A stretch of 64,000 bases of DNA from an uncultured Eubacteriales bacterium. Its GTDB lineage: Bacteria; Bacillota; Clostridia; Oscillospirales; Acutalibacteraceae. Shown in pieces: positions 5,201 to 24,014 of this stretch. The first letter of the stretch is position 1. Each line of letters begins with the position of its first letter. The notes beneath the pieces are model-generated. The model saw only the letters and a list, made by a program, of their open reading frames with translations. It did no database searches and was not told the origin of the DNA. The DNA lies in assembly GCA_900322085.1 (NCBI GenBank), contig ONYN01000122.1:460-64459 (forward strand). Reading direction: 5' to 3'. The translations under genes and the position numbers were made by a program.

Positions 5201-6916
5201 AAGTGCTTCATCTTTATCATCAAAAATATTCCGAAGAAGATATTCCCTCATAAATGAGTTAAGAAACTCAACTTTTACAAACTCCGGCAGTTTTGAAATA
5301 CTGAGTCCTTCATCTAAGAAAAAAATCGGTATGCCAAAAGGAATGAGTTCATAATCTTCATTAAAAAAGAATGCCGGCATATCATTTGGGTTGGCGTTTT
5401 TGTTAATGTTCCAAGAAAACTCATCTTTAAATGCTTTTGCTGTTCGAGCTATATGCCTTATTTTTTCTTTATTGCCTTCGATATTATCTGTTTTGACATT
5501 TTGTCTCTTAACCCAAGCCTTTACTATTTTGCAGGCATTTTCAAATGAAAATTTATAATCATCTGGGTCTACCGGAAACAAATCATAAATAAAACTGCTT
5601 AAATCTTCTTCTTCCTCAGTATCAAAATCTAAAAGAACTCTGTCAAAATCTTTACCCCTTAAGTATTTAGAAAGACCGGTATTATACCACACAGGCTGAT
5701 ATGTCATCGGTATATATTTTCCGTTGACATTTGGAAGAATCGGCTTTTTAGTTGCGCTGTCCAAAAGATAATCTTCAAATTTATAATCTTTGGATAAATC
5801 AACAGGAAGTTTGCTGTCGTTAATAAGCAGTTTGCAAATTTCATAATCAGCACGTTTTTTTTGTGCAATTTTAATAGCAATATCGACCATAAAACCAGCT
5901 GCCGCTTTTAATATGGTTTTATTTGCGTCCGAATCTTTGGCTAAATGGTTTCTGTTTTGATCAAGAGAAAAACTGGCATGCAAAAGAAACGGATATGGAA
6001 ATACAACATCCGTTTTAAAATAACTATATAAAAATTGTTCATCTTCATCTATTCCCTGATCACAATAAGCTAAGGAAATAATATATGCCTTTTCTTTCGG
6101 CTTTCCGTTATCATCAGTATCAAGATTGTCTATTGTTGTGCCGGTTTTTGTTCGGACATGCCATTCTTTTTCACTTACAATACAATTATTAACTGTTTTG
6201 GAAAGGACAACGCTATTTTTCTTTTTCTTTTTTGAATAAACAACTGAGTATTCATCCGTGTCAATAGACAATATTTCTGTTCGATTCAGGAAAAGAAGAA
6301 TATTTTCATCAAGATTTTTTATCTGATTAATAATCTCTTTGTGTTTCCCTTTTTTAACTTTTAGGGAAATAGTTGTTGTATATTCACTTGCTTTTTTTTC
6401 ACCTATCCATTCGGGAAAAGCTAATGTGGGAGCTTTTTTGTTTTTTACAGGTTCCTTATATTTTGATAATATATCGTTCATTACGGATTTAGCATAATCC
6501 TCAGAAAAACGAACATGCAAATCTCCGCTGTGAATGGTAATTTCATTTGCCCAGTTTAATACAGATCGGAAGCCGGTCCCTTTGTTGCCGATAACTTCTT
6601 TTTGCCTTTCCCTTTTTGAACTGTTGTTAGAATACATTAAAGATATTATGCCGTCTTCAGTAAAAGGAGAACCATAATTTGAGATTGTTAAAACATCTTT
6701 TTTAAACGATATTTCAACTTTTTTATACTCAGATGATGCCTTTTTATCAATTTCATCATCAGCATTTTGCAACAATTCAAGAATTTCACGTCCGTGATAT
6801 GATTGCCAGTCTTTAGTTTCACGGTCATAGTCAGTTCCGACTTGGGCGTTTTCAGTTAAATAAATCGTCTTTTTATTCTCGTTTTTCTCAAGAATAAATT
6901 TCTTCATTTTATTCAT
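2258..6916 (-). CDS. Sacsin/NO VEIN-type GHKL (HSP90-like) ATPase fused to C-terminal DUF3883 restriction-endonuclease-fold domain, 1552 aa
   Basis: The N-box and G2-box of the Bergerat fold are present (REILELLQNADDE; GNKGTGFRSVLNW). The extreme C-terminus (GERYVYDLL ... GLGYDMEYIDENNNRFFVEVKTS ... YLSNNEYDFA) matches the DUF3883 PD-(D/E)xK module. About 1100 aa in the middle are unassigned. Confidence 0.7.
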   Translation of the reverse strand: MNKMKKFILEKNENKKTIYLTENAQVGTDYDRETKDWQSYHGREILELLQNADDEIDKKASSEYKKVEISFKKDVLTISNYGSPFTEDGIISLMYSNNSSKRERQKEVIGNKGTGFRSVLNWANEITIHSGDLHVRFSEDYAKSVMNDILSKYKEPVKNKKAPTLAFPEWIGEKKASEYTTTISLKVKKGKHKEIINQIKNLDENILLFLNRTEILSIDTDEYSVVYSKKKKKNSVVLSKTVNNCIVSEKEWHVRTKTGTTIDNLDTDDNGKPKEKAYIISLAYCDQGIDEDEQFLYSYFKTDVVFPYPFLLHASFSLDQNRNHLAKDSDANKTILKAAAGFMVDIAIKIAQKKRADYEICKLLINDSKLPVDLSKDYKFEDYLLDSATKKPILPNVNGKYIPMTYQPVWYNTGLSKYLRGKDFDRVLLDFDTEEEEDLSSFIYDLFPVDPDDYKFSFENACKIVKAWVKRQNVKTDNIEGNKEKIRHIARTAKAFKDEFSWNINKNANPNDMPAFFFNEDYELIPFGIPIFFLDEGLSISKLPEFVKVEFLNSFMREYLLRNIFDDKDEALKYFDALGIKEYNSDEIIELLNITISSKKKTKPYWDKIIKWLWDNRDIVLSDDSTTIDILFYTRKKTYKKSSTLYLGKEYGYDLCDNLLGKVGSADFAADIHEIIGNQPTELINEFLEKLGIDSLPRLIKESVSIHNSWWYGGKDRDFICKLVEELKYPYKIGNDSYKTSSAFSKAITEVEYERSSIENLEKILKTSRTTDIIEWIRNDDSLRSMLTTKHEATTSSVNVLWGNKISRFQRIDEIKKPYSYIYYLFCTVPWIQVDDKRYNIDDCLILNSNCNLAPHLVSPDIDDYIKNIDENKSTVRKEYKRIFKDLGVKEGLNEFDDLPVSKIYSVLMHLCEIEESSSIAKSLYSCLLEKDFDSKTIECDERKAFLEQGMVYTNNGYKPIKETYYLAEKGISRQVLNNFNTICLDTRESVAKVQKVFGVKELRIHGEPVGEPILHNDSSTFGRDFKEFLPLCFIYRLKDLSSKTDIRDEARKMLSINICLCSEITALYNSKFQVRLDDYEYIVCEKRKAYIKVPYDFSLNLMKHNQKFSFAIAEVICSCLDIAKPLKDIANLFFRGSQSERLEYLYSTESEHLVQEALGYFDFKEDIKDEFINTVSKITKNDKKYIRQLSHNIDFDHFSGKGNASVLIELFKKLEIDFDDYNSCNVSSEIDLTSYFQSEIERIKQDYRELYKSIIYKKLKTKSIDEKKRLVDCFFDFDNADYIIHNSAYFNAEEVVFKRFSLNKPEKQMDLNKIYKTNKEKWTSSIKEGFNLIDSFLSNNENTSLLYYAEFEELGRRFEEYLSSYNDETVDTSLIESPHKELRVVKNFSIKPATFSNVKPNNNTVGFKNNESKASQVRNGKNGERYVYDLLKKHHKVYWISENAKKENINPEGRAGLGYDMEYIDENNNRFFVEVKTSAKSINDGIKFYLSNNEYDFAVAHQGKYFIYYVTDVNSDNPQLYILTDVIFDDFNKEKYTVEAESKYIITAKVD

Positions 6917-6999: not shown

Positions 7000-9900
7000 T
7001 TACGCCGAAATCCAGCCATAGCCCTGAACTGCCATGTCAATAAAGTGATTCAACAGAAGCATTGCCTTCGAGTTGAACGAAACAATATCATAGCTGTCGG
7101 GTAAATCATGGTCGAGAGAATCTTTGATTTCGCTTTCGATTTTCTTCACCGGCTGTTCATCTCTGTACCAGTCAACAACAAACAGTTCGGCTTTCTTTTC
7201 GGTCAATTTCTTATAAAGATTCTTTGCAGAAAGCTTAACTATCTGCTCTTCTGCCTTCGTGAGCTTTTTGCCGACAATAAGCAAATCGTATAGTTCCAGC
7301 TCTTCCTCGGTCAAGCCCTCGGTCTGAGCTCGGTTATCCTCTTCTTTAAGGTCATTTATGAGCTGAATCAACTGCTCATAGTAATCCTCATTCTCGCTGC
7401 CTCCGGCGTTATAGCGGTCAATAATACCCTTATATCTTTGCGAGAACTGCATTCTGGTAATATTTTTATTTATCATCTGCTCAAGCGCTCTTTCAAGAAA
7501 TGCTTTGAGGTCATCAATCTCAATTGCTTTGTATTTTGCCTGGCGTATTTCTTTTCTGAGTTCTTCAGCATCAATGCTTGAAAGATTAATAAACTTATCC
7601 TGATGAATTACAATTTCCTGCTGGTCTTCGGTTTTTGCCGCTTCAACGCTGTAATCAAGCACCGTCTGCATACGGATACGCGCTTCTTTGACTTTTTCAT
7701 CGTCAATGGTATGTTTCAGCAATCCGTGAATATATGCCAAAGGCGCAAATTTGCTGTTATACCAGTTTCTTTCAAATATCTCGGGCTTTGACGCTTCATA
7801 CAGGTTCATCAGTGTATTAAGTAGCACTTTTGCCTGAGTTTTGGTGTCATCATTTGCAACAATGGTGTTATAAACATCCCTGAGCAGATCAAGTCTGTCA
7901 AGGGTGTTTTCCTCTGCAATTATGCTGTCAATATCAATGCCGATTGATTTGAAATAAGAATCTGTTTCTTCTATTGTCGCATCAGTATATGCAATCAGCT
8001 GCGTAACATCTTTTGCAGGGAATTCATCGCTGTCATCACCTGTGGCATACTGCGACAGAGCGGTTTTCATAAATTTAAAAATGTTTACATAGTCAACAAT
8101 GATTCCGCAGGGCTTGTCAGGATATACTCTGTTTGCCCTTGCAATTGCCTGCATAAGGGTATGCCCCTTCATCGGCTTGTCAAGATAAAGGGTTGAAAGA
8201 TTAGGCACATCAAAGCCGGTCAGCCACATTGCGCAAACAAAAACCAACTGAAGCGAATCATCCGGGTCTTTGAATCTGTCTTCAATATCCTTGCCTTCAG
8301 GCGTTATTTCATTCATCTTGGCGCGGTGAGATTCAATATCAAGGCCGTATGCCGTGAATTTGTCTTTCTCCTCGGCATCTTCCGATATTATTACTGCCAT
8401 TTCTGCCTTGTTCATATAATCGAGAATGTCGGTTAACCTCTTGCGCTCATCAGCATCCGAAGTCTGATTGCGTTCTTTGATTATATCTTGCTTTTCAATC
8501 GCCCAGTAATGCTGAACTTTGTCATACATTTTAACAGCGGTATATTTATCAACAGATACAACCATGCCTTTTCCCATAAATCCGCGTCTCGGAAAGTGAT
8601 GGGCAATATCTCTGGCAATTTTATCAAGGCGGTCTTCGCGCTTGATTACCTCAAGCACTCTTGCCTGTGAGTTTTCAAGCAGACCGATTTCGTCTTCGTT
8701 AAGTTCAAGATCTTCAATAATGCTTTTAACATCATCATCGATAAAATCGTTTGTCAGCCATACTTCAGGAACCCTGCGTGAATAGAACAGCGGAACTGTT
8801 GAACCGTCTTCAATGCTCTGCGCAAAGTTATATTCCGAAACATAGTTGCCAAACCATTGATTTGTAAGGCGTTTTGCTCCGAGAAGCGGAGTTCCGGTAA
8901 ACGCTACATAGTTTGCGTTCGGCATTGAGCGGCGCATATTTTCGGCAAGGTCTTTATACTGCGTTCTGTGCGCTTCATCAACAAGAACAAATATGTCATC
9001 CCTGTCTGTCAACTTCGGGTATTTCTCGCCCTTGTCGGTTCTGAATTTATGTATCAGTGTAAATATGAACGGCTTGTTTGACTGCAGATATTCCCTGAGT
9101 TGCTTCGCGTTTTTTGGCTGGCATTCTTCTTTCGGACCGATTACATCTGTTCTTACAAAGGTCTTGTGAATCTGATTGTCAAGATCTTCTCTGTCTGTAA
9201 TAACAACAAATGTGAAGTTACCTGGTATTTTGCGCTTGACTTTGCGGGCAAACATAACCATTGAGAATGATTTGCCGCTGCCCTGTGTGTGCCAGAAAAC
9301 GCCGAGCTTGCCTTCGAGTTCTTTTCTGTTTTTGACCGATTCCATAAGATTGTTAACGCCGAGGAACTGATGGTTCTTCGCGATAATCTTTATGCTCTGA
9401 TTCTGAAAAATGATGAAGTTCTCAATATAATCAATCAGGCGGTCTCTGCGAAGCAAGCCGTCAATGAAATATTTAACAGAGCTCTCGCCCACATCATCGG
9501 CATTGCGAATCGCTTTTCTGTTGGGCTTCTCTTTTTCGCTGTCAACCTTCAGCCATTCAAAAAAGTATTCATATTTTGCATTGAATGCGCCGAGCCGGGT
9601 CTCAAGTCCGTTTGACAGCACACAAATCTGATTGAAAGCAAACAGATTCGGTATATCTTTTTTGTAATTAGTCAGGTTGTCATTATATGCGTCGCGGACT
9701 TTAACAATGCTGTTTTTAAGTTCAATAAACACAAGCGGCATACCGTTTACAAAAATAAGCACGTCGGGTCTGCGCCAATATACTTTGCCCTGAATCCACA
9801 TCTGCGAAACAGCGGTAAAAGTGTTATTCTCGGGGTTTTCAAAGTCAATGAGTTTTACAAAATCAAAATCTTCTTTTCCGTTGCGGCGAACCTTGATTTG

Positions 9901-10215
9901 TATGCTGTTTCTTATCTGATTATAGAGCTTGTAATTGACAGCGGTTATATCCCGACCTGTGAAATCTACGGTCAGGGTTTTAACAACTTCATTCAGTTTT
10001 TCATCCTCAATACCGGGATTGATTCTTCGCAGAGATTTTTTCAGAACTTCCGGCAGAACACACTGCCTTTTGTTGGTGCGGTATGTTCCGTCATCGGGAT
10101 CTTCTCTGTGAACAGGGTCGGGGTCGCAGCGAATGATATCGTAGCAAAACGGTGCGGCTTCAAGTTTTTCAAGTATCGCCTGCTCAATATCGTCTTCGGA
10201 TATGAAGTTGCTCAT
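7000..10215 (-). CDS. hsdR: Type I restriction enzyme R subunit (HsdR)
   Basis: The N-terminal nuclease motif is PDVLIFVNGMPLVFIELKN. SF2 helicase motifs are HTQGSGKS, VLVDEAHRTQY, FTGTPL and QAIARANR. ATG at 10215 has a GGAGA RBS, so the ORF-track TTG start at 10239 is probably an over-extension. Confidence 0.9.
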   Translation of the reverse strand: MSNFISEDDIEQAILEKLEAAPFCYDIIRCDPDPVHREDPDDGTYRTNKRQCVLPEVLKKSLRRINPGIEDEKLNEVVKTLTVDFTGRDITAVNYKLYNQIRNSIQIKVRRNGKEDFDFVKLIDFENPENNTFTAVSQMWIQGKVYWRRPDVLIFVNGMPLVFIELKNSIVKVRDAYNDNLTNYKKDIPNLFAFNQICVLSNGLETRLGAFNAKYEYFFEWLKVDSEKEKPNRKAIRNADDVGESSVKYFIDGLLRRDRLIDYIENFIIFQNQSIKIIAKNHQFLGVNNLMESVKNRKELEGKLGVFWHTQGSGKSFSMVMFARKVKRKIPGNFTFVVITDREDLDNQIHKTFVRTDVIGPKEECQPKNAKQLREYLQSNKPFIFTLIHKFRTDKGEKYPKLTDRDDIFVLVDEAHRTQYKDLAENMRRSMPNANYVAFTGTPLLGAKRLTNQWFGNYVSEYNFAQSIEDGSTVPLFYSRRVPEVWLTNDFIDDDVKSIIEDLELNEDEIGLLENSQARVLEVIKREDRLDKIARDIAHHFPRRGFMGKGMVVSVDKYTAVKMYDKVQHYWAIEKQDIIKERNQTSDADERKRLTDILDYMNKAEMAVIISEDAEEKDKFTAYGLDIESHRAKMNEITPEGKDIEDRFKDPDDSLQLVFVCAMWLTGFDVPNLSTLYLDKPMKGHTLMQAIARANRVYPDKPCGIIVDYVNIFKFMKTALSQYATGDDSDEFPAKDVTQLIAYTDATIEETDSYFKSIGIDIDSIIAEENTLDRLDLLRDVYNTIVANDDTKTQAKVLLNTLMNLYEASKPEIFERNWYNSKFAPLAYIHGLLKHTIDDEKVKEARIRMQTVLDYSVEAAKTEDQQEIVIHQDKFINLSSIDAEELRKEIRQAKYKAIEIDDLKAFLERALEQMINKNITRMQFSQRYKGIIDRYNAGGSENEDYYEQLIQLINDLKEEDNRAQTEGLTEEELELYDLLIVGKKLTKAEEQIVKLSAKNLYKKLTEKKAELFVVDWYRDEQPVKKIESEIKDSLDHDLPDSYDIVSFNSKAMLLLNHFIDMAVQGYGWISA

Positions 10216-10235
10216 AAGAAATTCTCCGTTTAAAC

Positions 10236-11255
10236 TCAATTTATAAATGAATCAATCAAAGCTATAAATTCATTAATCTCAGAAAAATAATTTGGATATG
10301 CTTTCTTTAACATTGAAAACGAAGTGGTTGAAACAAGCACTATATCCTCGTTTGCTTTTCTGGTTTTTTCAGCCCTGTCATATTCAAGTGTTGCCTGTTC
10401 AAGTGCATTCTTTTTAAAAGATTTAATAGACAATTGATTTGTATCTCTATCTAAAATCAACACATAATATCCTTGATCAAGTGTTTCAGAACTATCTACA
10501 TAACCTACAGCTTCTTTAATACTTTTTAACTTTCTTAAAACCTCATATTTTTCCTCATATTTAATAAACTCTTGTATAATACTCGACCGTTTAACAGCTT
10601 CAACTTTTTGACCGTTAGTTTCATATATTTCTAATAACTTTGAAACCGAGATAAAAAACTGTCTGTTATATGGATCGCCTTGACCTATCTTTAATGGATC
10701 TCCGGTAAAAGTATCCATTGTTTCAACTGCAGTTGCCCATAAGTGTTGTACATGTGTGCGGATTTGTATCTCAATAAATAGACCGTTATATTTTGGATTT
10801 CGGTCACTGTTGTATGAATAAACAATATGATAGCTTCTGTACCCATCATCCTTTGGAGTTTTTATGTAGTCATATTCTTCCTTCAGTTTGTGTCGCATTC
10901 TCGATTTCTTTAAAGACTCAACCATATTGTAGACTTCATCAGTAGTATTGAAAATAACTCTGCACCCACCAATGTCTTGCATGGTAGTTAAACTCATATT
11001 AGGGAATCTATATAGTTTTTGCGTAATTGAATACAAACGTTTTAATCTTTGGGCTACAACAGCATCCTCACCCGCTGTTTTCTTGACATGCATATAGATT
11101 ATTTGCAAAGGAAAAGCGTGGGCTGCACGCCAATTATTAATTAGAGTAAGCGCATAATCTTTTTCAGACTTTGAAGATTCATCTGAAACAAACACTTTCC
11201 CCGCTTTTTTTATTTGTGTTTTGGGAAATCTTATTTCTTCATAATTGTGAGACAT
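10236..11255 (-). CDS. RelA/SpoT-family (small alarmone synthetase / toxSAS-like) nucleotide pyrophosphokinase with unassigned C-terminal domain
   Basis: All synthetase motifs are present: QRLKRLYSITQKL, DIGGCRVIF, PKDDGYRSYHIVY and IEIQIRTHVQHLWATAVE. There is no HD hydrolase domain, and the ~140-aa C-terminal domain is unassigned. The gene has a GGAGG RBS. Its start lies inside the last 17 nt of hsdS and its stop is 20 nt before the hsdR ATG. Confidence 0.85.
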   Translation of the reverse strand: MSHNYEEIRFPKTQIKKAGKVFVSDESSKSEKDYALTLINNWRAAHAFPLQIIYMHVKKTAGEDAVVAQRLKRLYSITQKLYRFPNMSLTTMQDIGGCRVIFNTTDEVYNMVESLKKSRMRHKLKEEYDYIKTPKDDGYRSYHIVYSYNSDRNPKYNGLFIEIQIRTHVQHLWATAVETMDTFTGDPLKIGQGDPYNRQFFISVSKLLEIYETNGQKVEAVKRSSIIQEFIKYEEKYEVLRKLKSIKEAVGYVDSSETLDQGYYVLILDRDTNQLSIKSFKKNALEQATLEYDRAEKTRKANEDIVLVSTTSFSMLKKAYPNYFSEINEFIALIDSFIN

Positions 11256-12420
11256 TTTTTACCTCCAGTTTACCACTCATCAGGCGCGGCAAAAGTAAAT
11301 CTCGTTGTTTTGTTAAGTCCATATTTATTTTATATAGTGTGTTTTTTTGAATCATTATATTCCTAAGAATATCATTTGCTTTTTTCATAGTGTTATCATC
11401 AGCAACTAAAACCATTATTTTTTTCAAGTGTCTGTCTCCAAGGTGGCTTACGGTAGTCCCAGATAATGTCTGTTCCCAAAACTTAATTTGAGAATAAATT
11501 GAAAGATAGAGCCAATAATTGCAAACTTTGACACTCTTACTATCTAATTCAACTACTCGTTGATTTAAAAAGGCCCTTTTTCCACTCCATAAACACATAT
11601 GGAATATTCCATCCATACCTATTAGAATCGCATTTTCTTTTATTAAATACTTATCATCACATAACTCAGGGGTAAAAGTTTTTGTATCGTTTTTAGGGAT
11701 GTCTCTTATTCTGACAACAGCATTGAGAGTTTCATCATCTGTGAATGCGTCTGAAGAAAATGAGTATCCATAAGTAACATTAGCAACATCAAAAAGATTT
11801 GAATACTCCCATCCCTTTGGAATTCCATTCTCAAACTCTGCCGATTCATACCCGGGAAAGCGGAAACGGACAAACCACTCCTTATACATTTCTTCGGCCA
11901 TCTGCTCAAGAACCTTAATGCGTTTGTTGTTGATCTCGATAAGTGAATCATAGTTTGAAAGAACAGAAACAATGCTCTTTTGGTATTCTATAGCCGGAAA
12001 ATCCCATTTGATTTTTTTTATAAAACCAAGGTCGGCACGCTGTCTGCCGCTTGCACCAGTCATACTGTTAGCGGCAAGTTGCCTCATATGTTTCATTCTA
12101 AGCAGATAGTAAATATAATCAGTGTCCGTAACTCCATCTATGCCACGAAAAACAAACAGTTCAGTTGAGCCAAATCCTTTTTTGCCATTGGTTTTTGCTA
12201 CTGCCATCTTTCCATTTTCAAGGCAGGGGGTTATACGAGCAAACAAAACATCATTATCTTCAAATTTTGCTCCACTCTGACCGGTGTATTCAATTTCTTC
12301 ATCACTTTTAACAGGTTTAAATCCCGGATTGATCTTATCAATATCAACCAAAGGGTATTTTTCACCTTTTATAAGTTTAACAGAAGGATTACAGTTTACT
12401 TTTTCGCCAAATCTATCCAT
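11239..12420 (-). CDS. hsdS: Type I R-M specificity subunit (HsdS), two target-recognition domains
   Basis: Two variable halves are separated and followed by the conserved HsdS spacer helices (NKRIKVLEQMAEEMYKEWFVRFRFPGYE; LTKQRDLLLPRLMSGKLEV). The ATG lies 3 nt after the hsdM stop. Confidence 0.85.
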   Translation of the reverse strand: MDRFGEKVNCNPSVKLIKGEKYPLVDIDKINPGFKPVKSDEEIEYTGQSGAKFEDNDVLFARITPCLENGKMAVAKTNGKKGFGSTELFVFRGIDGVTDTDYIYYLLRMKHMRQLAANSMTGASGRQRADLGFIKKIKWDFPAIEYQKSIVSVLSNYDSLIEINNKRIKVLEQMAEEMYKEWFVRFRFPGYESAEFENGIPKGWEYSNLFDVANVTYGYSFSSDAFTDDETLNAVVRIRDIPKNDTKTFTPELCDDKYLIKENAILIGMDGIFHMCLWSGKRAFLNQRVVELDSKSVKVCNYWLYLSIYSQIKFWEQTLSGTTVSHLGDRHLKKIMVLVADDNTMKKANDILRNIMIQKNTLYKINMDLTKQRDLLLPRLMSGKLEVKNVSQL

Positions 12421-12423
12421 AGA

Positions 12424-13719
12424 TTACTCACCAAACAAAGCTTTTAAATTTTTGCCAATCTGGGTTTCAAGTTCTTTTGCTTCTGCATTCAACGCTTCAT
12501 ATTCTGTGTTCAACCCAAGCATGGTTTCTTTGAACGCTTCTGCTGTCATTCCGTCATCTTCAATAACAACGCCTACATAACGGCCTGCATTCAGCGAATA
12601 ATCCTGATCGGCAATGCTGTCTTCCTCTATAATTTCAATCGGATTACCGTCTTTATCAAGTTTAGGTTCACCGTTTTCATCAAGCTCATAAGAGATGCCG
12701 AGAGTAGCGACTTTGCATAAACCGATTACATCACGGTATTTGCCGTCAGGGAAACGCTCGGTGAGCCAGTTAATCTGCGCCTGCCAGTATGATTTGGTTT
12801 TAACTTCTTTATCATCTGATTCTTCGGGTGCTTCCGACATAGCGGCTTTATACTCTTCAATCAGCGCTTTGAGCGCTCCGGAGTCGCCTTTGTAAAGACG
12901 GGTAATAATACCGAGATTTTTAATCTGCTCGTCGCTGAATTTGCGGTGCGCTCTGTCAACCTGTGTGAACACATTTCTCGCGTCAATAAAGAGTATTTCA
13001 TCGTTTTTGTCGGTATGGGGCTTTTGTTTATCAAAGAACCAGAGTGTCGCAGGCAGTGTTACGGTTGAAAACATATTTGAGGGCAGAGTAACCATCTGAC
13101 TGATGATTCCTTCTTCGATCATCTTCTTGCGGATTTCATATTCACTCTTGCCCGCGTCGGAAGCGGAGTTTGCCATAACGAGCGCGGCTCTGCCGTTTTC
13201 ATTCAGGGCAGTTGCAAAATAGCCTATCCACAGATAGTTGGCGTTCGGCACGGTTTCTTTTTTATCCGACTTTTTCTTTGATGAATTAGAAGAATTTCTC
13301 GGCACACCGTATGTGTTGAATCTGGCATCATCAATAACCCTGTCAAATGTTACTTCATCCACATTGAACGGCGGATTTGCCATTACGTAGTCAAATGCGC
13401 CGACAGCATTATATGGGTCTGCATAAAATGAGTTTGCCTCGGTTATTTCGCCGCGGACATTATTGAGAAGAAGATTCATTTTGGCAAGTTTTACTGTATC
13501 GGGTTCTTTTTCAACACCGTAGCAGCGGAAGCTCATCTGCTCCGCTTCACTGGCATTATGATTGTGCATATATCTTGCAGACTGAACAAACATACCGCCC
13601 GAACCGCAGGCGGGGTCTATAAAGACGCTATCTTTGATACAAACAGAAAAAGCCTTCTCCGACACATAAGTGCCGAAAAAGGCGTAAAATAAGGGCCTTT
13701 GAGGTTCCACTGTGTTCAA
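12424..13719 (-). CDS. hsdM: Type I R-M methyltransferase subunit (HsdM), apparently 5'-truncated (possible pseudogene)
   Basis: SAM motif I (IDPACGSGGMF) sits at residue ~35 and catalytic NPPFN at ~106, followed by a long HsdM-type C-terminal region. The HsdM_N domain and the GEFFTP-type motif that normally precede motif I are absent. The listed start is a TTG inside a terminator hairpin loop. The frame opens only at ~13755, and the upstream residues are not HsdM-like. Confidence 0.75.
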   Translation of the reverse strand: MNTVEPQRPLFYAFFGTYVSEKAFSVCIKDSVFIDPACGSGGMFVQSARYMHNHNASEAEQMSFRCYGVEKEPDTVKLAKMNLLLNNVRGEITEANSFYADPYNAVGAFDYVMANPPFNVDEVTFDRVIDDARFNTYGVPRNSSNSSKKKSDKKETVPNANYLWIGYFATALNENGRAALVMANSASDAGKSEYEIRKKMIEEGIISQMVTLPSNMFSTVTLPATLWFFDKQKPHTDKNDEILFIDARNVFTQVDRAHRKFSDEQIKNLGIITRLYKGDSGALKALIEEYKAAMSEAPEESDDKEVKTKSYWQAQINWLTERFPDGKYRDVIGLCKVATLGISYELDENGEPKLDKDGNPIEIIEEDSIADQDYSLNAGRYVGVVIEDDGMTAEAFKETMLGLNTEYEALNAEAKELETQIGKNLKALFGE

Positions 13720-13846: not shown

Positions 13847-14410
13847 TCAATCTACAGAATCCGCGCAGTGCTGAATACGGCTGATTACCTGTTCTACTTC
13901 GTTCCAGTTTCGCACACGCGTCATGCCGTGTGCTTCTGCATCATAACTAATGTTATGAGGAGCTGTCATCAGGATTTTTTTATAGTGCCCGCCTTCCAAA
14001 TTATGAATACCGTCATCAATCAGAACATCTCCATTTATCATTTGTTTGCGGCTTGTAATTATCACATGATCCCAAGACAAAAACGGGAAGTATCTAAATA
14101 GAACTTCACTCATCTTTTCGTAGATGGATTCGTATGGCGTAGCTGTAACAATAAACACTTCGTGCCCAGCGTTAATTAGGCGCTTCAAAGCATCTGACGC
14201 GCCATCAATGGGATCGACGGTTTTCCAGAAACCGGGCTGCATAGGAATATCATAAACCTGCTCACGAGTTAATCCCGGAAAAGCGGCAGATACATCCCAA
14301 GAACGAATCTCCTCGCAGGATACGCTACACCCATATTTTTTGTTGACACCATCAACCCACGCTTTAAGAAGGTGTTCAATCGTGTCATCCATATCTACAA
14401 GAATTACCAT
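13847..14410 (-). CDS. 5'(3')-deoxyribonucleotidase (NT5C family, HAD superfamily)
   Basis: The N-terminal HAD motif is ILVDMDDTIEHLLKAWV (DxDxT). The overall ~190-aa layout matches NT5C/YorS-like enzymes (WDV...PG...FW...P..GA...L.. GHEVFIVTA ... ITS.K....GDVLIDD). The start is either ATG 14410 or GTG 14422. Confidence 0.75.
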   Translation of the reverse strand: MVILVDMDDTIEHLLKAWVDGVNKKYGCSVSCEEIRSWDVSAAFPGLTREQVYDIPMQPGFWKTVDPIDGASDALKRLINAGHEVFIVTATPYESIYEKMSEVLFRYFPFLSWDHVIITSRKQMINGDVLIDDGIHNLEGGHYKKILMTAPHNISYDAEAHGMTRVRNWNEVEQVISRIQHCADSVD

Positions 14411-14449
14411 TTTCGCTTTCACCCTCTGGCTACAGAACTACAAATACGC

Positions 14450-15304
14450 TTATTTATCCATCTTCTCAAGTTCTCCGAGGCTTACTCCGTTTTCATCTTT
14501 CCACTTGAAATTACCGCTTAAAGATGCCCCACCTATAAAACTTGCTGCAGCGGATGGACTTGAAAGAAGCACATCAGCGGTAAGCGTATATGTCTCATCA
14601 ATTAGTTCAGAATACTTTTTGCGGTCTTTTATGGCCCTTTGGGGACAAGCCTTTGTGATTTGTGGATTAAGTTTACTGCCTTTCAAAACAACAAATCCGT
14701 CGCTTGTTCTTTTCCCCACAGCTTTTGCACCGCTATATTCTAAAAACAGTAGTGGCTCCGCTTCATTCTCTGGCGTGAGTGAAACATAGGGCTCAAATAC
14801 CTTATGGCCAAGAGCCCCCATTACTATTTTTGCGTAGTCTATGAACTCTTCAAGCTCGCTTTCTGTTTCCTCCGTGATATTTCCGGGATTAGGATCGTTT
14901 CCATTTTTTACAACGTAACGATTAGCTTGAATCGCTAAATTACAAAAACGATTTTCAAGATAGCTTATCTCTGTTGGCCCGAATGAGTTATTTGAAGTAG
15001 TAAACATTATCGTCTCGGTCCAATAGTCTATTGATGGGTGGGCCTCCTGAACACGAAGCAATAATCCCTTCCCATTTTTTCTGATTCCGGCTTGTCCAAT
15101 ATACACGACAGCGTTATCTTCTTTATCCGTGCCGAAGAGGAAATAGACACCGCTTTGTTTTAAGATATCCATGTCCTTACACTTGTCAAGCGAAGTCCGA
15201 GGTATTTTATAAGCGATACCGGTCCAGTTAGCGAGGGAGCATTTTATTCTGCCGCTCGGCTCTCCATCTATTAGGAATAGTTTTAACGTCTTGCTACGTG
15301 ACAT
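14450..15304 (-). CDS. GIY-YIG nuclease family protein with C-terminal DUF4357-like domain
   Basis: The GIY-YIG core is SGVYFLFG ... VVYIGQA ... R...H, followed by YLENRF. The C-terminal third (FLEYSGAKAVGKRTSDGFVVLKGS ... FSSPSAAASFIGGASLSGNFKWK) fits DUF4357. The ATG at 15304 is preceded by GAGGAGGAAG. Confidence 0.75.
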   Translation of the reverse strand: MSRSKTLKLFLIDGEPSGRIKCSLANWTGIAYKIPRTSLDKCKDMDILKQSGVYFLFGTDKEDNAVVYIGQAGIRKNGKGLLLRVQEAHPSIDYWTETIMFTTSNNSFGPTEISYLENRFCNLAIQANRYVVKNGNDPNPGNITEETESELEEFIDYAKIVMGALGHKVFEPYVSLTPENEAEPLLFLEYSGAKAVGKRTSDGFVVLKGSKLNPQITKACPQRAIKDRKKYSELIDETYTLTADVLLSSPSAAASFIGGASLSGNFKWKDENGVSLGELEKMDK

Positions 15305-15338
15305 AATCTTCCTCCTCAACTACAGACTATCGATATTA

Positions 15339-16184
15339 TTATGAGAACAACGACAAAAAGACCCCGTTCTCCATGTCATTGATGTTATACAAGTGCTGCA
15401 TCGTATTAAAGGTTTCTTCGAGATTTCTTCTGGCACTGCGCCAACCACCACCATCTGTTACCCAGACAAATTCAACTCCTGTAACAGACCGTGCTTCTTC
15501 AGCAATCATCTTATAGCTTCTGGCTGTCTCATTAAGTTTGGAACCGCCTCCGCCATAAAAATTTGTTTCAATAACGTAAATGAGAGAATCCGTTTTAACG
15601 ACGAAATCCCACCGCTTAGTAGATGTGCCTTCAGCGGAAATCGCAGAGAGGTCAACACCCCATTTTTTCTCTATGTCAGTTATATACATTTCCTTGTAGT
15701 ATTCCACACCGGTCTGCTTAATGAATCCTTCTACAAGGTCCTCCATTTGATGGCCTCCACGGTTTTTTCTGCCGTTACTGTCAAGGCCGGTTTCAATGCC
15801 AAGCACATAATCGACGAGGTTATTGACAAGGTGGTTTGCAATCAGATCCAATAAACCGGTTTTTCTCATAAACTCCATATACTGCTCAACGGAGTAACTC
15901 ATTTTATTGAAGTCAAATAGGAATGCACCTTCTGAATCTTGCGCATATATTTCGCTCTGCCGAACAGCCAAGAGTGTGGGAATACACTTCAGTATCTCCG
16001 GATATCTTTGAAGTAAGGAAGAAAAATCTGCTTCAATGTTCTTCGAGCCGATAAGAGAGTTCATGATATTAAGCTCAATTCTTATGCTCTCAACATTGGC
16101 ATAGACTTTTTCAAAATCGACATAGTAATTGTAATTATTTATGCTCGGACGCATCTTTCCAAGCCACTCACTAAAACTCCGCAT
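15339..16184 (-). CDS. dpnB: DpnII-family type II restriction endonuclease (GATC, cuts unmethylated)
   Basis: Long colinear matches to my recollection of S. pneumoniae R.DpnII: NIMNSLIGSKNI, YPEILKCIP, NHLVNNLVDYVLGIETGLDSNGRKNRGG, KRWDFVVK, IETNFYGGGGSKLNETARSYKMIAEE and VEFVWVTDGGGW. It overlaps dpnA by 14 nt. Confidence 0.9.
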   Translation of the reverse strand: MRSFSEWLGKMRPSINNYNYYVDFEKVYANVESIRIELNIMNSLIGSKNIEADFSSLLQRYPEILKCIPTLLAVRQSEIYAQDSEGAFLFDFNKMSYSVEQYMEFMRKTGLLDLIANHLVNNLVDYVLGIETGLDSNGRKNRGGHQMEDLVEGFIKQTGVEYYKEMYITDIEKKWGVDLSAISAEGTSTKRWDFVVKTDSLIYVIETNFYGGGGSKLNETARSYKMIAEEARSVTGVEFVWVTDGGGWRSARRNLEETFNTMQHLYNINDMENGVFLSLFS

Positions 16185-16968
16185 GCAAAACCTCCTGTTG
16201 TAATCTTCTAACTGAGAGTTCGATATATTCCTCTACATTGTCAATGCCTATGTACCGTCGTCCAAGCATTTTGGCAGCAACGCCTGTAGTGGAGCTCCCG
16301 CAAAATGGATCTAAGACCAAATCTCCGGGATTGGTAGAAGCTTCAATTATTCTTTCGAGCAAATACATCGGTTTCTGAGTCGGATGTTTCCCGAACGCTT
16401 TCTCTTTTTGTGAGGTGAGCGGTCCGGTCCAAACGTCCTTCATCTGTTTGCCACCGTTTTGCTGTTTCATTAATTGATAGTTGAAAAGGTGCCTTGACTT
16501 CTTCTCATCCTTTTGAGCCCATAACACCGTCTCGGTACTATGCGTAAAGCATCTACATGCGAGGTTTGGAGGAGGATTTGTCTTTTGCCATGTGATGTTG
16601 TTTATGATCTTAAAGCCCTCTTGCTCTAAGGCCATGCCGATACTATAAATATTGTGGAGCGTTCCACTAATCCATATCGTTCCATTCGGGGTAAGGACAT
16701 TTCTGCATAGACGAATCCATTTTCTATTGAAGGCGTGCTTTTCAGAAACAGATGAAACCTTGTCCCAATCACCCTTATTAACAGAAACCATTTGACCGGC
16801 ATGGCACGTAACGCCATCATTACTCAAAAAGTATGGTGGATCGGCAAAGACCATATCGACTGACGATGGGGCTATCTTTTTGAGAACTGAAAAAGTATCA
16901 CCCAAAAAGAGCATCTCAGTTTCTGTACAATAATATGGAGAAACCCTACCTTTAATCAGTTCTCTCAT
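16171..16968 (-). CDS. dpnA: DpnA-type beta-class N6-adenine DNA methyltransferase
   Basis: Motifs include DMVFADPPYFLSNDG, VSVNKGDWDK, EKHAFNRKWIRL, NGTIWISGTLHNIYSIGMALEQEGFKIINNITWQKTNPPPN, GKHPTQKPMYLLERII and DPFCGSSTTGVAA. These are near-colinear with pneumococcal DpnA as I recall it. Confidence 0.9.
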   Translation of the reverse strand: MRELIKGRVSPYYCTETEMLFLGDTFSVLKKIAPSSVDMVFADPPYFLSNDGVTCHAGQMVSVNKGDWDKVSSVSEKHAFNRKWIRLCRNVLTPNGTIWISGTLHNIYSIGMALEQEGFKIINNITWQKTNPPPNLACRCFTHSTETVLWAQKDEKKSRHLFNYQLMKQQNGGKQMKDVWTGPLTSQKEKAFGKHPTQKPMYLLERIIEASTNPGDLVLDPFCGSSTTGVAAKMLGRRYIGIDNVEEYIELSVRRLQQEVLHAEF

Positions 16969-16981
16969 AAGACATTTCCCC

Positions 16982-17812
16982 TTAATAATTTGTGATTATT
17001 ACTTCTTTTCCAGTTCGTTTTGAGGCGTCACTGTTAATGGCTCTCCGAACATCAAAATGCTCAATCGAAAAGCCGCTATATAGTTCGTGGACAAGAGGAA
17101 CATCATGATTGCTTAACATCACCTTGGCCCCTTGCTCTGACAATCGCCTGTATAGTGCAGCTAACCGTTTGTGGTCTTCGAGCGAAAAACCTTCTTTTGT
17201 GTAATCAGTGAAATTCGCTGTCTCATCAATCGGCACATACGGAGAGTCGAAATAAACAAAATCACCGGGCTGGACATCAAAACACGCGCTTTCAAAATCT
17301 CCTTGACGAATTTCAACGTCTTTTGACCTTAAGTAAAGGCCTATGTTTCTAAGGTTTGCTGCGTCAATCGAGACACCGCCTTTTTTATTGTTGTATGGCA
17401 CGTTGAACAGCCCTTTAGAATTAACCCGATATAAGCCATTGAAACAATGCTTATTAATCCAAATCATCAGCGCAGCACATTCAGGGTCCAGCTCATGGGC
17501 CTTGATTTTTGCGTTATACGCTTCGCGGATCTTCATATATCGCTCTTTGTCGCAAGGTTCAGCATCAAGCACCTGTACCGCAGCAATAACAGCCTCTGCG
17601 TCAATCTTGAGCTGCCTATAGACATTTAAAAGCTGCTCATTGATGTCGTTAATAACCACTCGTTCGGGCTGCAATTCAAGGAGAAGCGCACCTCCGCCTA
17701 TAAAGGGCTCATAATACCTTCCGTAGTCCGTTGGCATATGCGCCTTCAGCCTATCAAGCAGTTGCGTTTTGCCACCTGCCCATTTCACAAACGGTCCTGT
17801 TTTAAATTCCAT
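16982..17812 (-). CDS. dpnM: Dam-type (alpha-class) GATC N6-adenine DNA methyltransferase, DpnM-like
   Basis: Motifs are FVKWAGGKTQLL, YYEPFIGGGALLLEL, VINDIN, NGLYRVNSKGLFNVPY, GDFVYFDSPYVP, FTDYTKEGFS and VMLSN. The ATG is preceded by AGGAGGAAACC. Confidence 0.9.
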   Translation of the reverse strand: MEFKTGPFVKWAGGKTQLLDRLKAHMPTDYGRYYEPFIGGGALLLELQPERVVINDINEQLLNVYRQLKIDAEAVIAAVQVLDAEPCDKERYMKIREAYNAKIKAHELDPECAALMIWINKHCFNGLYRVNSKGLFNVPYNNKKGGVSIDAANLRNIGLYLRSKDVEIRQGDFESACFDVQPGDFVYFDSPYVPIDETANFTDYTKEGFSLEDHKRLAALYRRLSEQGAKVMLSNHDVPLVHELYSGFSIEHFDVRRAINSDASKRTGKEVIITNY

Positions 17813-17925
17813 CTTGGTTTCCTCCTAATTCCAAATTGGGTCATAGTATAGATGCCATACCTTTTTTCATTTATCAAGCCCATTTTGGAATATAATTTCT
17901 GAACTTTGTGTTTCCGGATGAACAT

Positions 17926-18597
17926 TTACCAGCCTCTATCCATCCGGCGAATGTCATAGACAAACTGCTTCTGAAAATAGAAAGCGTGGTTTTTGTTCGA
18001 CACATATCTTCCATACACCCGTGAATAAATCGGATGATAACTACCACTTGCATCACGAGCGTCTTTGCTGCGAACCTGAATGTGAGTACCATTCGATGTA
18101 TGTATAAATCCATCAGGGCTATTCTCGATATGATATCTGAGCTGCTCGCAGATGGAATAGTAATCATTACGCCAGATTTCTCTTAATTGAGCAAACTTCC
18201 GGAGTGACAAATCGATATGGATGCTCGGCAAAAACATCCAGTCCTCTGGATGGCCATCTTTGCAAACAGGAACATAGAGAATATTACTGATTTTCTCATA
18301 GAGATGGGTGTCTTCAAAAGGCCTCTCCTGTATCAGCTCGTCAATGACACTACTTATCTGTGTGATAAAGACTGTTTCTCTGGGATTCCCGGCTGCATCA
18401 CATTTGTTCGTTTTCAGTTCCCCATCATCAAAATCCAGATTTGTGCTTGAGAGATGCATCCCAAGGGACAGTTCAAGTAGTTGTCCTGTTTTGCCCTTGT
18501 TTATGATGATCATGTTCATATCGGACGGAGAGAATAGGTCTCCAAATCTAATTCCTGCAAGATTATTAAATCGCCTACATGCTTCTTCGAGTCTCAT
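17926..18597 (-). CDS. MutH-family (MutH/Sau3AI) single-domain endonuclease
   Basis: The protein is colinear with E. coli MutH as I recall it. KGKTGQLLELSLGMHLSSTNLDFDDGELKT aligns with [33 protein letters not shown], which includes the catalytic D...E-x-K. Further matches are PRETVFITQ, ILYVPV, THIQVRSKDA and HAFYFQKQF. GGAGG lies 7 nt upstream of the ATG. Confidence 0.85.
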   Translation of the reverse strand: MRLEEACRRFNNLAGIRFGDLFSPSDMNMIIINKGKTGQLLELSLGMHLSSTNLDFDDGELKTNKCDAAGNPRETVFITQISSVIDELIQERPFEDTHLYEKISNILYVPVCKDGHPEDWMFLPSIHIDLSLRKFAQLREIWRNDYYSICEQLRYHIENSPDGFIHTSNGTHIQVRSKDARDASGSYHPIYSRVYGRYVSNKNHAFYFQKQFVYDIRRMDRGW

Positions 18598-18599
18598 AC

Positions 18600-19142
18600 T
18601 TACGCCTCCGTTTCATCTCGTGGCACCAAACCCCACGTCATATTTCGGCCAGAATAGTTCCAGTATCGGATGTCCTGTTCAATGAATAGCCACTTGATCG
18701 CTTTCAAAATGTGGTCCACAGGCAAGCCAGTGTCAAAATGAACTGTTTCCATATCGGCATCTGAAATATCCTCGCACTCAAACACACGTCTTAGTAGCTC
18801 GTGTAAACGAGAATACATTTCTGCATTTTCTTCTTTCTTGGCCTGTAAATCTGCTCCAAAGTCGTCATGCTTCGGAAAATTTCTTCTCCGTTGACCCGGT
18901 GGAGCATAATTGGCATTTTCAACGCATACGAGAAAGTCAAACCCGTTGTGCAGGTTTGCGGGTCTTTGTAAATAAACACGGTCACCTGTTTTTAAGGTTT
19001 CTACATAGTAAATGTACTTTGACGCATCTTCACCGCTACCTGTACCCGGTTCTTCAGCCGCAAGAGCATCTACAACTCGCATCCTGACTTCGTTTCTCGA
19101 ACCGCTATTTGAAAAGAATTTTGTTATTTCATGCTTTGGCAT
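18600..19142 (-). CDS. Hypothetical protein (180 aa), middle gene of the MutH-containing operon
   Basis: The ATG at 19142 is preceded by AGGAGG, and the ORF-track start at 19196 overlaps the upstream gene. The stop lies 2 nt before the MutH-like ATG. I recognise no motif (KYIYYVETLKTGDRVYLQRP ... KWLFIEQDIRYWNYSGRNM). Confidence 0.6.
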   Translation of the reverse strand: MPKHEITKFFSNSGSRNEVRMRVVDALAAEEPGTGSGEDASKYIYYVETLKTGDRVYLQRPANLHNGFDFLVCVENANYAPPGQRRRNFPKHDDFGADLQAKKEENAEMYSRLHELLRRVFECEDISDADMETVHFDTGLPVDHILKAIKWLFIEQDIRYWNYSGRNMTWGLVPRDETEA

Positions 19143-19153
19143 ATTCTTCCTCC

Positions 19154-19639
19154 TTAGAATCCTCGGTCCGCACAAAGGCGAGCGATGTCTCTCCAACCCA
19201 TGCCTTTCATAAAGACAACAGCATCGTTGACATCTCTGTTATTAATCAGTATCTCGTATGCAGCTAAGCGCTTGATCTTCCGCCCAAGTCTTGTGTGCGG
19301 GTAGTTTTCTTCGGCTGTCATTGCCATGTACAGTGTGGTGAAGAGCTTGTCTACCCTCAGCGCGTCATTCCCGTATGTGGCGGCTATATCTGATATCATG
19401 TTTAGATTCATATCTTCAATTCTTTTCGTAGTAACATCATAAATTGCCACGAAATCGTCGTACACCCGATTGTTCCCATATGCCTTTCCTAATGATTTCA
19501 GATCATTAAAGTAATCTTTATCCAAGGGTGGCTGTCTACTACCAGCTGGATCTGTCATATACACACACCAGTTGTCAATTTTACCCCTGTCATACTCTAA
19601 AAACGAACCATCCGAGAACCGCTTTATTAGTTGACCCAT
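19154..19639 (-). CDS. Hypothetical protein (161 aa), first gene of the MutH-containing operon
   Basis: The ATG has a GAAGGA RBS. The gene lies 11 nt upstream of the next cistron. I recognise no motif. Confidence 0.6.
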   Translation of the reverse strand: MGQLIKRFSDGSFLEYDRGKIDNWCVYMTDPAGSRQPPLDKDYFNDLKSLGKAYGNNRVYDDFVAIYDVTTKRIEDMNLNMISDIAATYGNDALRVDKLFTTLYMAMTAEENYPHTRLGRKIKRLAAYEILINNRDVNDAVVFMKGMGWRDIARLCADRGF

Positions 19640-19716
19640 ACTTCAATTCCTTCTTTCGTTACAAGAGAGATACAGCCTGCTGATATACACAGCAGGTTTT
19701 TGCTTTTCAGTAGGTT

Positions 19717-23804: not shown

Positions 23805-24014
23805 TTACTCATCATCCTTTACAAAGTCCACAAGGTCACCAATATTACAATCTAATACCTCGCAGATCCTGCCAAGCACATCCATGCTTACGGCTTCACC
23901 TCTTCCCATTTTTGCAATTGTGGAAGAGGTGATTTTTGTTTTTGCCATAAGGTCTTTCTTCATCATGTTTTTATCAATCAATAGTTTCCAGAGCTTGTTA
24001 TAGCTGTATGTCAT
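23805..24014 (-). CDS. XRE-family (Cro/CI-type) HTH transcriptional regulator, 69 aa
   Basis: The HTH is KKDLMAKTKITSSTIAKMGRGEAVSMDVLGRICEVLDCNIGDLV. The ATG is preceded by GGAGGAG. The gene lies 21 nt upstream of the HamA-like ATG. Confidence 0.85.
   Translation of the reverse strand: MTYSYNKLWKLLIDKNMMKKDLMAKTKITSSTIAKMGRGEAVSMDVLGRICEVLDCNIGDLVDFVKDDE

Follow-up and report, generated by a model that had tools for sequence, protein, structure and literature searches.

The stretch of DNA analysed here (the window) is a 64-kb segment of contig ONYN01000122.1 from an uncultured Eubacteriales bacterium, and it encodes, at the end of a run of three tightly spaced genes, a single-domain relative of the mismatch repair endonuclease MutH. 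The MutH-like gene follows genes for a DUF7004 protein and for a protein of 180 amino acids (aa), here called p180, and the three stand directly upstream of the Dam-type methylase gene dpnM, a second methylase gene of the DpnA type and the gene for the restriction endonuclease DpnII (Table 1). An earlier note, made from the sequence alone, had described three open reading frames (ORFs) of 161, 180 and 223 aa, separated by gaps of 11 and 2 nucleotides (nt) and lying 77 nt from hamB on one side and 113 nt from dpnM on the other, and all of these coordinates were confirmed. Its naming of the neighbours as a Dam-type DpnM, DpnII and a Hachiman-like helicase is borne out by matches in Pfam, PADLOC and NCBIfam, with HamA and HamB of Hachiman matching their PADLOC models at E = 4e-108 and 4e-303. 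Homologues of the MutH-like protein, p180 and the DUF7004 protein fall into 1220, 968 and 133 clusters, respectively; because each has hundreds of close homologues, the three ORFs are genuine genes and not chance reading frames.

Several searches related the 223-aa protein to MutH. It matched the Pfam MutH family PF02976 (E = 2e-5; 24.9 bits, cut-off 23) over residues 54-114, an NCBIfam MutH model (E = 8e-14) with residues 6-216 on model positions 12-216 of 223, and Haemophilus influenzae MutH (PDB 2aoq; E = 3e-6), and a profile of its family aligned with Escherichia coli MutH over residues 7-214 with an hhalign probability of 93.9%. The scores for the NCBIfam MutH equivalog models nevertheless stayed far below their cut-offs (NF003458, 51.2 bits against a cut-off of 243; TIGR02248, 47.2 bits against 229.9), and the Sau3AI model NF040973 (length 475) gave only E = 0.055 and 12.4 bits against a cut-off of 300. 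Since this last match is so much weaker, the protein is MutH-like rather than Sau3AI-like, as the earlier note had held. By these matches it is a genuine but distant single-domain homologue of MutH, related along its full length, and not a MutH orthologue. Several sources nevertheless label members of the family 'DNA mismatch repair protein MutH', and PHROGs places the protein in phrog_15364, to which it assigns no function. The best 120 of the 1220 homologues are 77-96% identical to it, and neither mutS nor mutL was found in the window. In PADLOC-DB v2, none of the three proteins had a match at E <= 0.01; neighbours in the window with matches there were HamA and HamB, the two cassette proteins recognised as MTase_II and REase_II, and PDC-S14.

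The residues on which MutH activity depends are largely in place. The MutH-like protein has a PD-(D/E)xK site (D...E-x-K with an upstream Glu and a downstream Lys), and its motif LDFDDGELKT aligns with D70...E77-L-K79 of MutH. In the hhalign comparison, for which the E. coli MutH sequence agrees in its N-terminal half with a PDB sequence, catalytic residues E42, D55, E60, K62, H98 and K102 correspond to MutH E56, D70, E77, K79, H112 and K116. The residues K34, R176 and K178 likewise take the places of the GATC-contact residues K48, R184 and K186, and Y207 that of the methyl sensor Y212. All of the equated residues are invariant in 21 family members (77-96% identity). We take Y212 to be the sensor of the N6-methyl group in MutH, and R184 and K186 to contact GATC. 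Because these residues are kept, it is natural to suppose, as the earlier note did, that the protein would read the same G6mATC mark as DpnII; the protein probably reads both GATC and its adenine methylation. The roles of E56, E68, H112 and K116 in MutH have been described, including an inhibitory-loop latch in which E68 engages H112 and H115 and which is relieved by MutL (bioRxiv 10.64898/2026.04.21.719898). Of the latch positions, H112 is kept as H98 in the window protein, whereas E68 is replaced by N53 and H115 by E101.

We examined which genes accompany the MutH-like gene in 80 loci from one-genome-per-species contigs, of which the 52 with complete 3.5-kb flanks were counted; cassette genes were located by tblastn and neighbouring ORFs were clustered. 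A D12 Dam-type methylase gene lay within 3.5 kb in 48 of the 52 loci (92%), on the same strand in 40 of these 48, so that the linkage to Dam-type methylases for which the earlier note had suggested a survey is strong. A second methylase of about 249 aa and of the N6_N4 type (Pfam E = 5e-26), here called c2, was present in 69% of loci and a second methylase of the DpnA type in 33%. Other genes of the window were far less constant: p180 was found in 29%, DpnII in 19% and DUF7004 in 8%. The prevailing order was Dam, MutH-like gene, a variable slot and c2, with the slot holding p180, a family termed cl6, a 362-aa HNH protein, an unrelated 177-aa protein (c9), cl6 together with p180, or nothing. 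The smallest loci were limited to Dam plus the MutH-like gene and c2, or to the MutH-like gene plus Dam and DpnA. The MutH-like protein was the sole recognisable nuclease in 29 of the 52 loci, which points to the ordinary restriction role that the earlier note had named as the outcome that would speak against its own proposal. Across genomes, then, a nuclease gene adjoins what would be its cognate methylase gene, as in Type II restriction-modification (RM) systems.

A second survey, anchored on p180, drew on 80 metagenome loci, 34 of them with full flanks and therefore counted. Dam was present in 91% of these, DpnA in 71%, DpnII in 68%, the MutH-like gene in 56% (absent in 44%) and DUF7004 in 38%. 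Loci that lack the MutH-like gene include the arrangements p180-Dam-DpnII-c2 and DUF7004-p180-Dam-DpnA-DpnII. The full order of the window, DUF7004-p180-MutH-like-DpnM-DpnA-DpnII, recurred in 11 of the 34 p180-anchored loci and in 5 of 8 viral loci, and is one recurrent variant, frequent in the closest relatives and on IMG/VR viral contigs. The trio is thus not a conserved unit: the two upstream genes do not generally accompany the MutH-like gene. The common denominator of the trio genes is instead the Dam-type methylase cassette, as both surveys and fusions of p180 to Dam (see below) indicate. Two candidate relatives were not confirmed. A 154-aa upstream protein of Saccharibacteria (c11) shares the motif NNRDVNDA with DUF7004, and was left out of the DUF7004 counts because hhalign did not confirm the relationship (probability 0.3); c9 was likewise rejected as a relative of p180 (probability 1.5).

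Other families share the slot. The cl6 proteins (about 177-199 aa) are PD-(D/E)xK-like, carry the motif (I/V)EKK(F/W)Q..GSVDEK and recur next to Dam, often between the MutH-like gene and p180 (for example, L087 10671-11204, L063 10670-11212 and L196 3887-4486). They gave no Pfam match above threshold, no NCBIfam match and no match to PDB sequences, and may be another unrecognised nuclease of GATC cassettes. The 362-aa slot protein occurred in six loci (L065 10661-11749, L069, L073, L079, L084 and L094), between the MutH-like gene and the second methylase gene, and combines N-terminal Cys clusters, a middle domain without assignment and a C-terminal HNH nuclease domain. Cassettes of Lachnospiraceae (L008-L013) are decayed, with p180 and the MutH-like gene intact, the N6_N4 methylase kept, DpnII gone and the D12 methylase reduced to 126 aa; an intact MutH-like gene beside a truncated Dam puts in question which methylase protects the host. 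A plasmid collection yielded a canonical Legionella mutH and one Leuconostoc remnant of Dam, cl6 and p180, and nothing else.

The two proteins encoded upstream had been described in the earlier note as lacking any recognisable motif. This holds for p180, which has no match in Pfam, NCBIfam or PADLOC; the 161-aa protein, however, matches DUF7004 (PF22539) over model positions 1-155 of 155, with 201.7 bits against a threshold of 27. Scans of PADLOC, NCBIfam and PHROGs gave nothing useful for either protein. An invariant motif, KWLFIEQDIRYWNYSGR, is common to the 968 p180 homologues. AlphaFold2 modelled both proteins with confidence. In the p180 model (predicted local distance difference test (pLDDT) 83.6, predicted template modelling score (pTM) 0.83), an alpha/beta part at the N terminus leads into a helical part at the C terminus, where KWLFIEQDIRYWNYSGR lies, and the DUF7004 model (pLDDT 89.7, pTM 0.87) starts with three strands and continues as a helical bundle. 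Neither model, of the kind proposed in the earlier note, had a significant fold match in the PDB: with Foldseek, the best match of p180 had E = 0.1 and nothing fell below E = 0.6 for DUF7004, and the alignment profile of p180 found only chance matches among PDB sequences (E > 0.4). Ribosome-inactivating-protein A chains headed the Foldseek list of p180 without significance (TM-score 0.27-0.30, root-mean-square deviation 9-10 Å), and a role as a related adenine glycosidase, considered on account of an E-x-x-x-R-Y-W motif, was dropped as unsupported. Neither sequence nor fold supports p180 as a SeqA-like reader or as a degenerate MutH/Sau3AI effector domain. Among the viral models of BFVD, Foldseek gave p180 a single match, an uncharacterized Streptomyces phage protein (TM-score 0.52), and tblastn of p180 on a phage collection gave none.

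Fusions indicate the likely partner of p180. Twice, independently, it is fused to a D12 methylase, at the C terminus in P0254 and at the N terminus, as a single unbroken ORF, in L047, and no fusion to a MutH-like protein was seen. Because p180 is fused to Dam, we argue that it would work with the methylase, physically or functionally coupled to it, rather than act as a dedicated activator of the MutH-like nuclease. Some homologues carry Cys-rich N-terminal extensions ahead of the p180 domain; in P0246 and P0278 the extension is 126 aa long with paired CxxC motifs of zinc-ribbon-like appearance, and P0271 has a C-terminal extension of 166 aa without assignment. The DUF7004 gene usually lies directly upstream of p180. 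Both p180 and DUF7004 are facultative accessories of Dam/DpnII cassettes.

The pairing of Dam with a MutH-like protein extends to lytic phages. We found MutH-like genes in 25 T4-like Synechococcus phages, at 27-33% identity and mostly annotated as hypothetical; they show the signature of the window protein (NKGxxGQ, DGELK, FEDxxYEK, QxRxK and AFY). In S-RIM8 (L195 1537-3022), the one phage inspected for gene order, the MutH-like gene directly follows the phage Dam gene, and in S-8S29 (OQ504979.1, L194 1571-3049) the two are fused into one 492-aa protein labelled only 'DNA adenine methylase'. Unlike the window, these phages lack DpnA, DpnII, p180 and DUF7004, and their MutH-like proteins may serve, for example, in degradation of host DNA.

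The DpnM, DpnA and DpnII genes of the window are contiguous and co-directional over positions 15339-17812, which makes them a DpnII cassette, and the trio shares their orientation (Table 1). Strong Shine-Dalgarno sequences precede both the p180 gene and dpnM. The length of p180 is counted from an ATG; the mechanically called ORF starts at an upstream TTG and would give 198 aa. A consensus scan found no promoter and no minus-strand terminator in the 113-nt spacer before dpnM, and the hairpin before the DUF7004 gene (19674-19698) scored as terminator-like on the plus strand only. No clear internal promoter or terminator splits the trio from hamB or from dpnM, with scan counts at or below the shuffled expectation. 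A strong promoter-like site (11 of 12 positions, plus TG) was found at 24115-24087, upstream of the HTH_26 regulator gene that heads the co-directional array, and such a regulator gene also stands directly ahead of p180 or DUF7004 in related loci.

Table 1 Features at and around the MutH-like gene, with positions in the 64-kb window.
Feature	Position	Strand	Basis
DpnII restriction endonuclease	15339..16184	-	PF04556, E 2.5e-111; PADLOC REase_II, E 2e-98
DpnA-type N6_N4 (beta-class) DNA methylase, second of the cassette	16171..16968	-	PF01555, E 1e-63; PADLOC MTase_II, E 9e-103
DpnM, Dam-family D12 N6-adenine methylase	16982..17812	-	PF02086, E 6e-62; NCBIfam TIGR00571 (dam), E 5.5e-80, above cut-off
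Spacer between MutH-like gene and dpnM (113 nt), ending in a strong ribosome-binding site (AGGAGG) before dpnM	17813..17925	-	Direct sequence reading
MutH-like single-domain PD-(D/E)xK endonuclease, 223 aa	17926..18597	-	PF02976, E 2e-5; NCBIfam MutH, E 8e-14; PDB 2aoq, E 3e-6
p180, 180-aa protein	18600..19142	-	No Pfam, NCBIfam or PADLOC match; 968 homologues
DUF7004 protein, 161 aa	19154..19639	-	PF22539, E 9e-60
Spacer between hamB and DUF7004 gene (77 nt), with a 7-bp hairpin (CCTGCTG...CAGCAGG)	19640..19716	-	Direct sequence reading
HTH_26 (Cro/C1-type) regulator, head of the co-directional array	23805..24014	-	PF13443, E 1e-20

The trio and the cassette belong to a defence island that fills the first 24 kb of the window (1-24 kb; G+C content 0.33-0.43, and 0.42 where the cassette lies) and contains a giant NOV_C protein, a TnsA-like protein, a Type I RM system, NT5C, PDC-S14 and Hachiman. 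The remainder, from 24.4 to 64 kb (G+C content 0.53), is a siphovirus-like prophage, and the island abuts the end of its replication module. The same junction between phage replication module and island occurs on other contigs, and the cassette is also found on IMG/VR viral contigs. Other genomes carry the block p180-MutH-like-DpnM-DpnA-DpnII as the cargo of a satellite-like element, which also has genes for a serine recombinase, a capsid protein and a D5 primase. Hosts of the MutH-like family include Lachnospiraceae, Oscillospiraceae, Clostridium, Negativicutes, Saccharibacteria, Mycoplasmopsis and others, and such a range across phyla at 55-96% identity indicates horizontal spread under strong constraint. 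The suggestion of the earlier note that the MutH-like gene has been recruited into defence, and is not part of core repair, fits its place in an island beside a prophage, its presence on viral contigs and this spread. Judged from its sequences and their neighbourhoods, the MutH-like clade is distinct and horizontally mobile, with the D12 Dam-type methylase as its conserved partner.

Other genes of the window are recorded here as side observations. The prophage, which is complete, encodes an extracytoplasmic function (ECF)-like sigma factor, a DUF2800 nuclease, DNA polymerase A, a primase-helicase and an SNF2-like helicase, then terminase, portal, major head, tape measure and tail proteins; it also has a fusion of ParB to a methylase (36630-37895), and a large integrase of the serine recombinase type lies at its far end (62188-63759). 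At the low-GC end of the island (0.33-0.35), a TnsA-like endonuclease N-terminal domain occurs in a 324-aa protein (1179-2153, minus strand) encoded after a 1552-aa protein with a C-terminal NOV_C (DUF3883) domain (2258-6916, minus strand), and both are probably further defence genes. Within the Type I RM operon, a gene for a 339-aa RelA/SpoT-domain protein (10236-11255, minus strand; PF04607, E 7e-23; small-alarmone-synthetase-like in NCBIfam) overlaps by a few bases both hsdR (7000-10239) and hsdS (11239-12420), and it could be a toxSAS/CapRel-like defence gene. The hsdM-like ORF of the same system (12424-13719, minus strand; 431 aa from a TTG) seems to start inside the methylase core, and its N-terminal domain may be truncated or frameshifted. 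Directly after DpnII come a DUF4357 protein, the PADLOC candidate PDC-S14 (14450-15319, minus strand), and a 5'-deoxynucleotidase of the NT5C family (13847-14422, minus strand); the same pair follows the cassette on unrelated contigs (L001, L003, L005, L100, L114 and L127). GATC is under-represented in the window, with 246 sites against 332 +/- 17 expected from dinucleotide-preserving shuffles, 100 of 100 of which held at least 246. This moderate depletion is consistent with long-term exposure to GATC restriction, and the prophage still holds many sites.

Comparison with characterized systems sets the locus apart in several ways. With the MutH proteins of E. coli and H. influenzae the window protein shares a single domain of about 220-230 aa, the fold family and a tie to Dam methylation; it differs in being only about 25-30% identical, in not conserving the E68/H115 latch and in its setting, as MutH is a gammaproteobacterial core-genome gene whereas the MutH-like gene is mobile defence cargo beside RM genes, outside lineages with Dam/MutHLS repair. 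In the DpnII cassette of Streptococcus pneumoniae (dpnM-dpnA-dpnB), the three genes and their order match those of the window, including both GATC methylases and the DpnII-family nuclease. The window cassette is extended upstream by the MutH-like, p180 and DUF7004 genes, which are not described for the pneumococcal cassette, and it sits on a prophage-associated island with Hachiman and PDC-S14.

The closest functional parallels are Sau3AI, LlaKR2I and DpnIII, the R components of GATC RM systems of Firmicutes that belong to the MutH superfamily. Sau3AI is insensitive to N6-methyladenine (m6A). These three are MutH-related GATC restriction enzymes, and DpnIII, whose partner is a 5-methylcytosine (m5C) methylase and which partly cleaves hemimethylated DNA (PMC4471560), is encoded, like DpnII, at a dpn cassette locus (PMC4471560, PMC4120201). 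Enzymes of the Sau3AI type have two MutH-like domains (bioRxiv 10.64898/2026.04.21.719898) and about 490 aa, against one domain and 223 aa in the window protein; the latter, in contrast to DpnIII with its m5C methylase, is paired with m6A methylases (D12 of the Dam type, and N6_N4), and it keeps the m6A-sensor Tyr. Flavobacteria and the mitochondrion of a protist, a katablepharid, have pairs of a MutH-like protein and a GATC methylase that were annotated as RM systems (PMC8099122). The katablepharid case, Kat-MutH, resembles the present case in joining a MutH-like nuclease to a predicted GATC methylase and has been read as a selfish Type II RM system; it differs in that its methylase is a cytosine-C5 enzyme, and neither component showed activity (PMC8099122). 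What is new here is the single-domain form, the steady pairing with Dam-type m6A methylases and the retention of the methyl-sensor residue of MutH.

From these observations we infer a specificity for GATC, sensitivity to methylation and a role in restriction. The MutH-like protein would bind GATC, its conserved Tyr (equivalent to MutH Y212) would reject N6-methylated adenine, and it would cut 5' of G on unmethylated strands; DpnM and DpnA would shield host and prophage DNA, and incoming unmethylated DNA would be cut. Because the protein is the sole nuclease beside the methylases in most other genomes, it would serve Dam-type Type II RM cassettes as their R component or as an alternative one. 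In the window it would be a second GATC nuclease beside DpnII; elsewhere it would mostly be the only one next to the methylases. We put the probability of this reading, an m6A-sensitive GATC endonuclease serving as the R component of Dam-type RM cassettes, at roughly 0.6. Several points weigh against it. MutH in its canonical form is a monomeric nickase, latent and dependent on MutL; a protein of one domain may do no more than nick and, unless it dimerizes or has a helper, would then restrict DNA poorly. With DpnII present, a further nuclease for its unmethylated site, the MutH-like protein, looks redundant. PADLOC models of restriction enzymes do not recognise the protein, and the E. coli MutH sequence used in its alignment was confirmed by a PDB sequence over the N-terminal half only. 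The conservation of the family (55-96% identity across phyla) is unusually high for a restriction enzyme and could point to a constrained, partner-dependent function. Finally, the only MutH-like RM candidate to have been tested showed no toxicity in E. coli, in a Dam+ host (PMC8099122).

In the proposal of the earlier note, the DUF7004 protein, p180 and the MutH-like protein would form one module, in which the two upstream proteins sense infection or foreign DNA and activate a latent nickase in place of MutS and MutL. The gaps of 11 and 2 nt and the recurrence of the six-gene order, albeit among close relatives, are in keeping with this, and allosteric activation, through a partner or through a second domain, is the general rule for enzymes of the MutH family (bioRxiv 10.64898/2026.04.21.719898). 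The gene surveys, however, do not bear such a module out: 71% of the MutH-like-anchored loci have no p180 and 92% no DUF7004, 44% of p180 loci do without the MutH-like gene, the fusions of p180 join it to Dam and in no case to the MutH-like protein, and the slot beside the MutH-like gene is filled by unrelated genes (PD-(D/E)xK, HNH or c9) or is empty. We therefore consider a three-protein module improbable. The redundancy with DpnII would disappear if the MutH-like protein nicked the unmethylated strand of hemimethylated GATC, which DpnII cannot cut, with fast-replicating foreign DNA that escapes DpnII, or transformed or conjugated DNA, as its targets, and with accessory proteins or limited expression sparing host replication forks. 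All strand-discriminating residues of MutH, Y212 included, are kept, and the related DpnIII partly cleaves hemimethylated DNA (PMC4471560); yet freshly replicated host DNA is hemimethylated as well, no means of self-protection is evident, and 81% of MutH-like-anchored loci have no DpnII to complement, so that a nickase of this kind seems to us unlikely. A broader version, to which we give similarly small weight, would see Dam-linked MutH-like proteins not as plain restriction enzymes but as strand-discriminating nickases that attack hemimethylated foreign DNA during its replication and form a second layer of defence against host-modified, DpnII-immune phages and plasmids, with p180, binding the methylase, and DUF7004 balancing methylation and nicking so that replication forks of the host escape.

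Least probable of all, in our estimate, is a mobile mismatch repair module, in which Dam and the MutH-like nickase would plug into the MutS and MutL of the host and bring strand discrimination of the E. coli kind. The likeness to MutH does run over the full length, H112 and K116, which are central to activation by MutL (bioRxiv 10.64898/2026.04.21.719898), are kept, the gene is constantly beside Dam, and the name of the repair protein is attached to some members. Against this stand the score of 51 against a cut-off of 243 for the NCBIfam equivalog, the changes of the latch residues E68 and H115 to N53 and E101, and the presence of the gene in defence islands, prophages, satellite-like elements and lytic cyanophages. 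As in a typical RM system, the gene has another methylase gene beside it and, often, genes for further nucleases. The family also occurs in Saccharibacteria and in Mycoplasmopsis, and Mollicutes are not known to encode MutS and MutL.

MutH is the textbook nuclease of strand discrimination and is usually seen as a gammaproteobacterial speciality. Here, a large and strongly conserved sister clade of MutH, comprising over 1200 sequence clusters, accompanies Dam-type methylases on mobile elements and is spread over Firmicutes, bacteria of the candidate phyla radiation, Mollicutes and cyanophages, with one fusion to Dam in a cyanophage. The p180 and DUF7004 proteins represent confidently folded families without a match in the PDB and are candidate regulators or cofactors of DNA methylation or restriction. 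Should the MutH-like protein act autonomously as an m6A-sensitive GATC nuclease, it would represent an unrecognised family of restriction enzymes. As the PADLOC models miss it, annotation of gut and rumen bacteria would then understate their GATC RM systems, and the clade would hint at the relation of MutH and Sau3AI to an ancestral nuclease linked to Dam.

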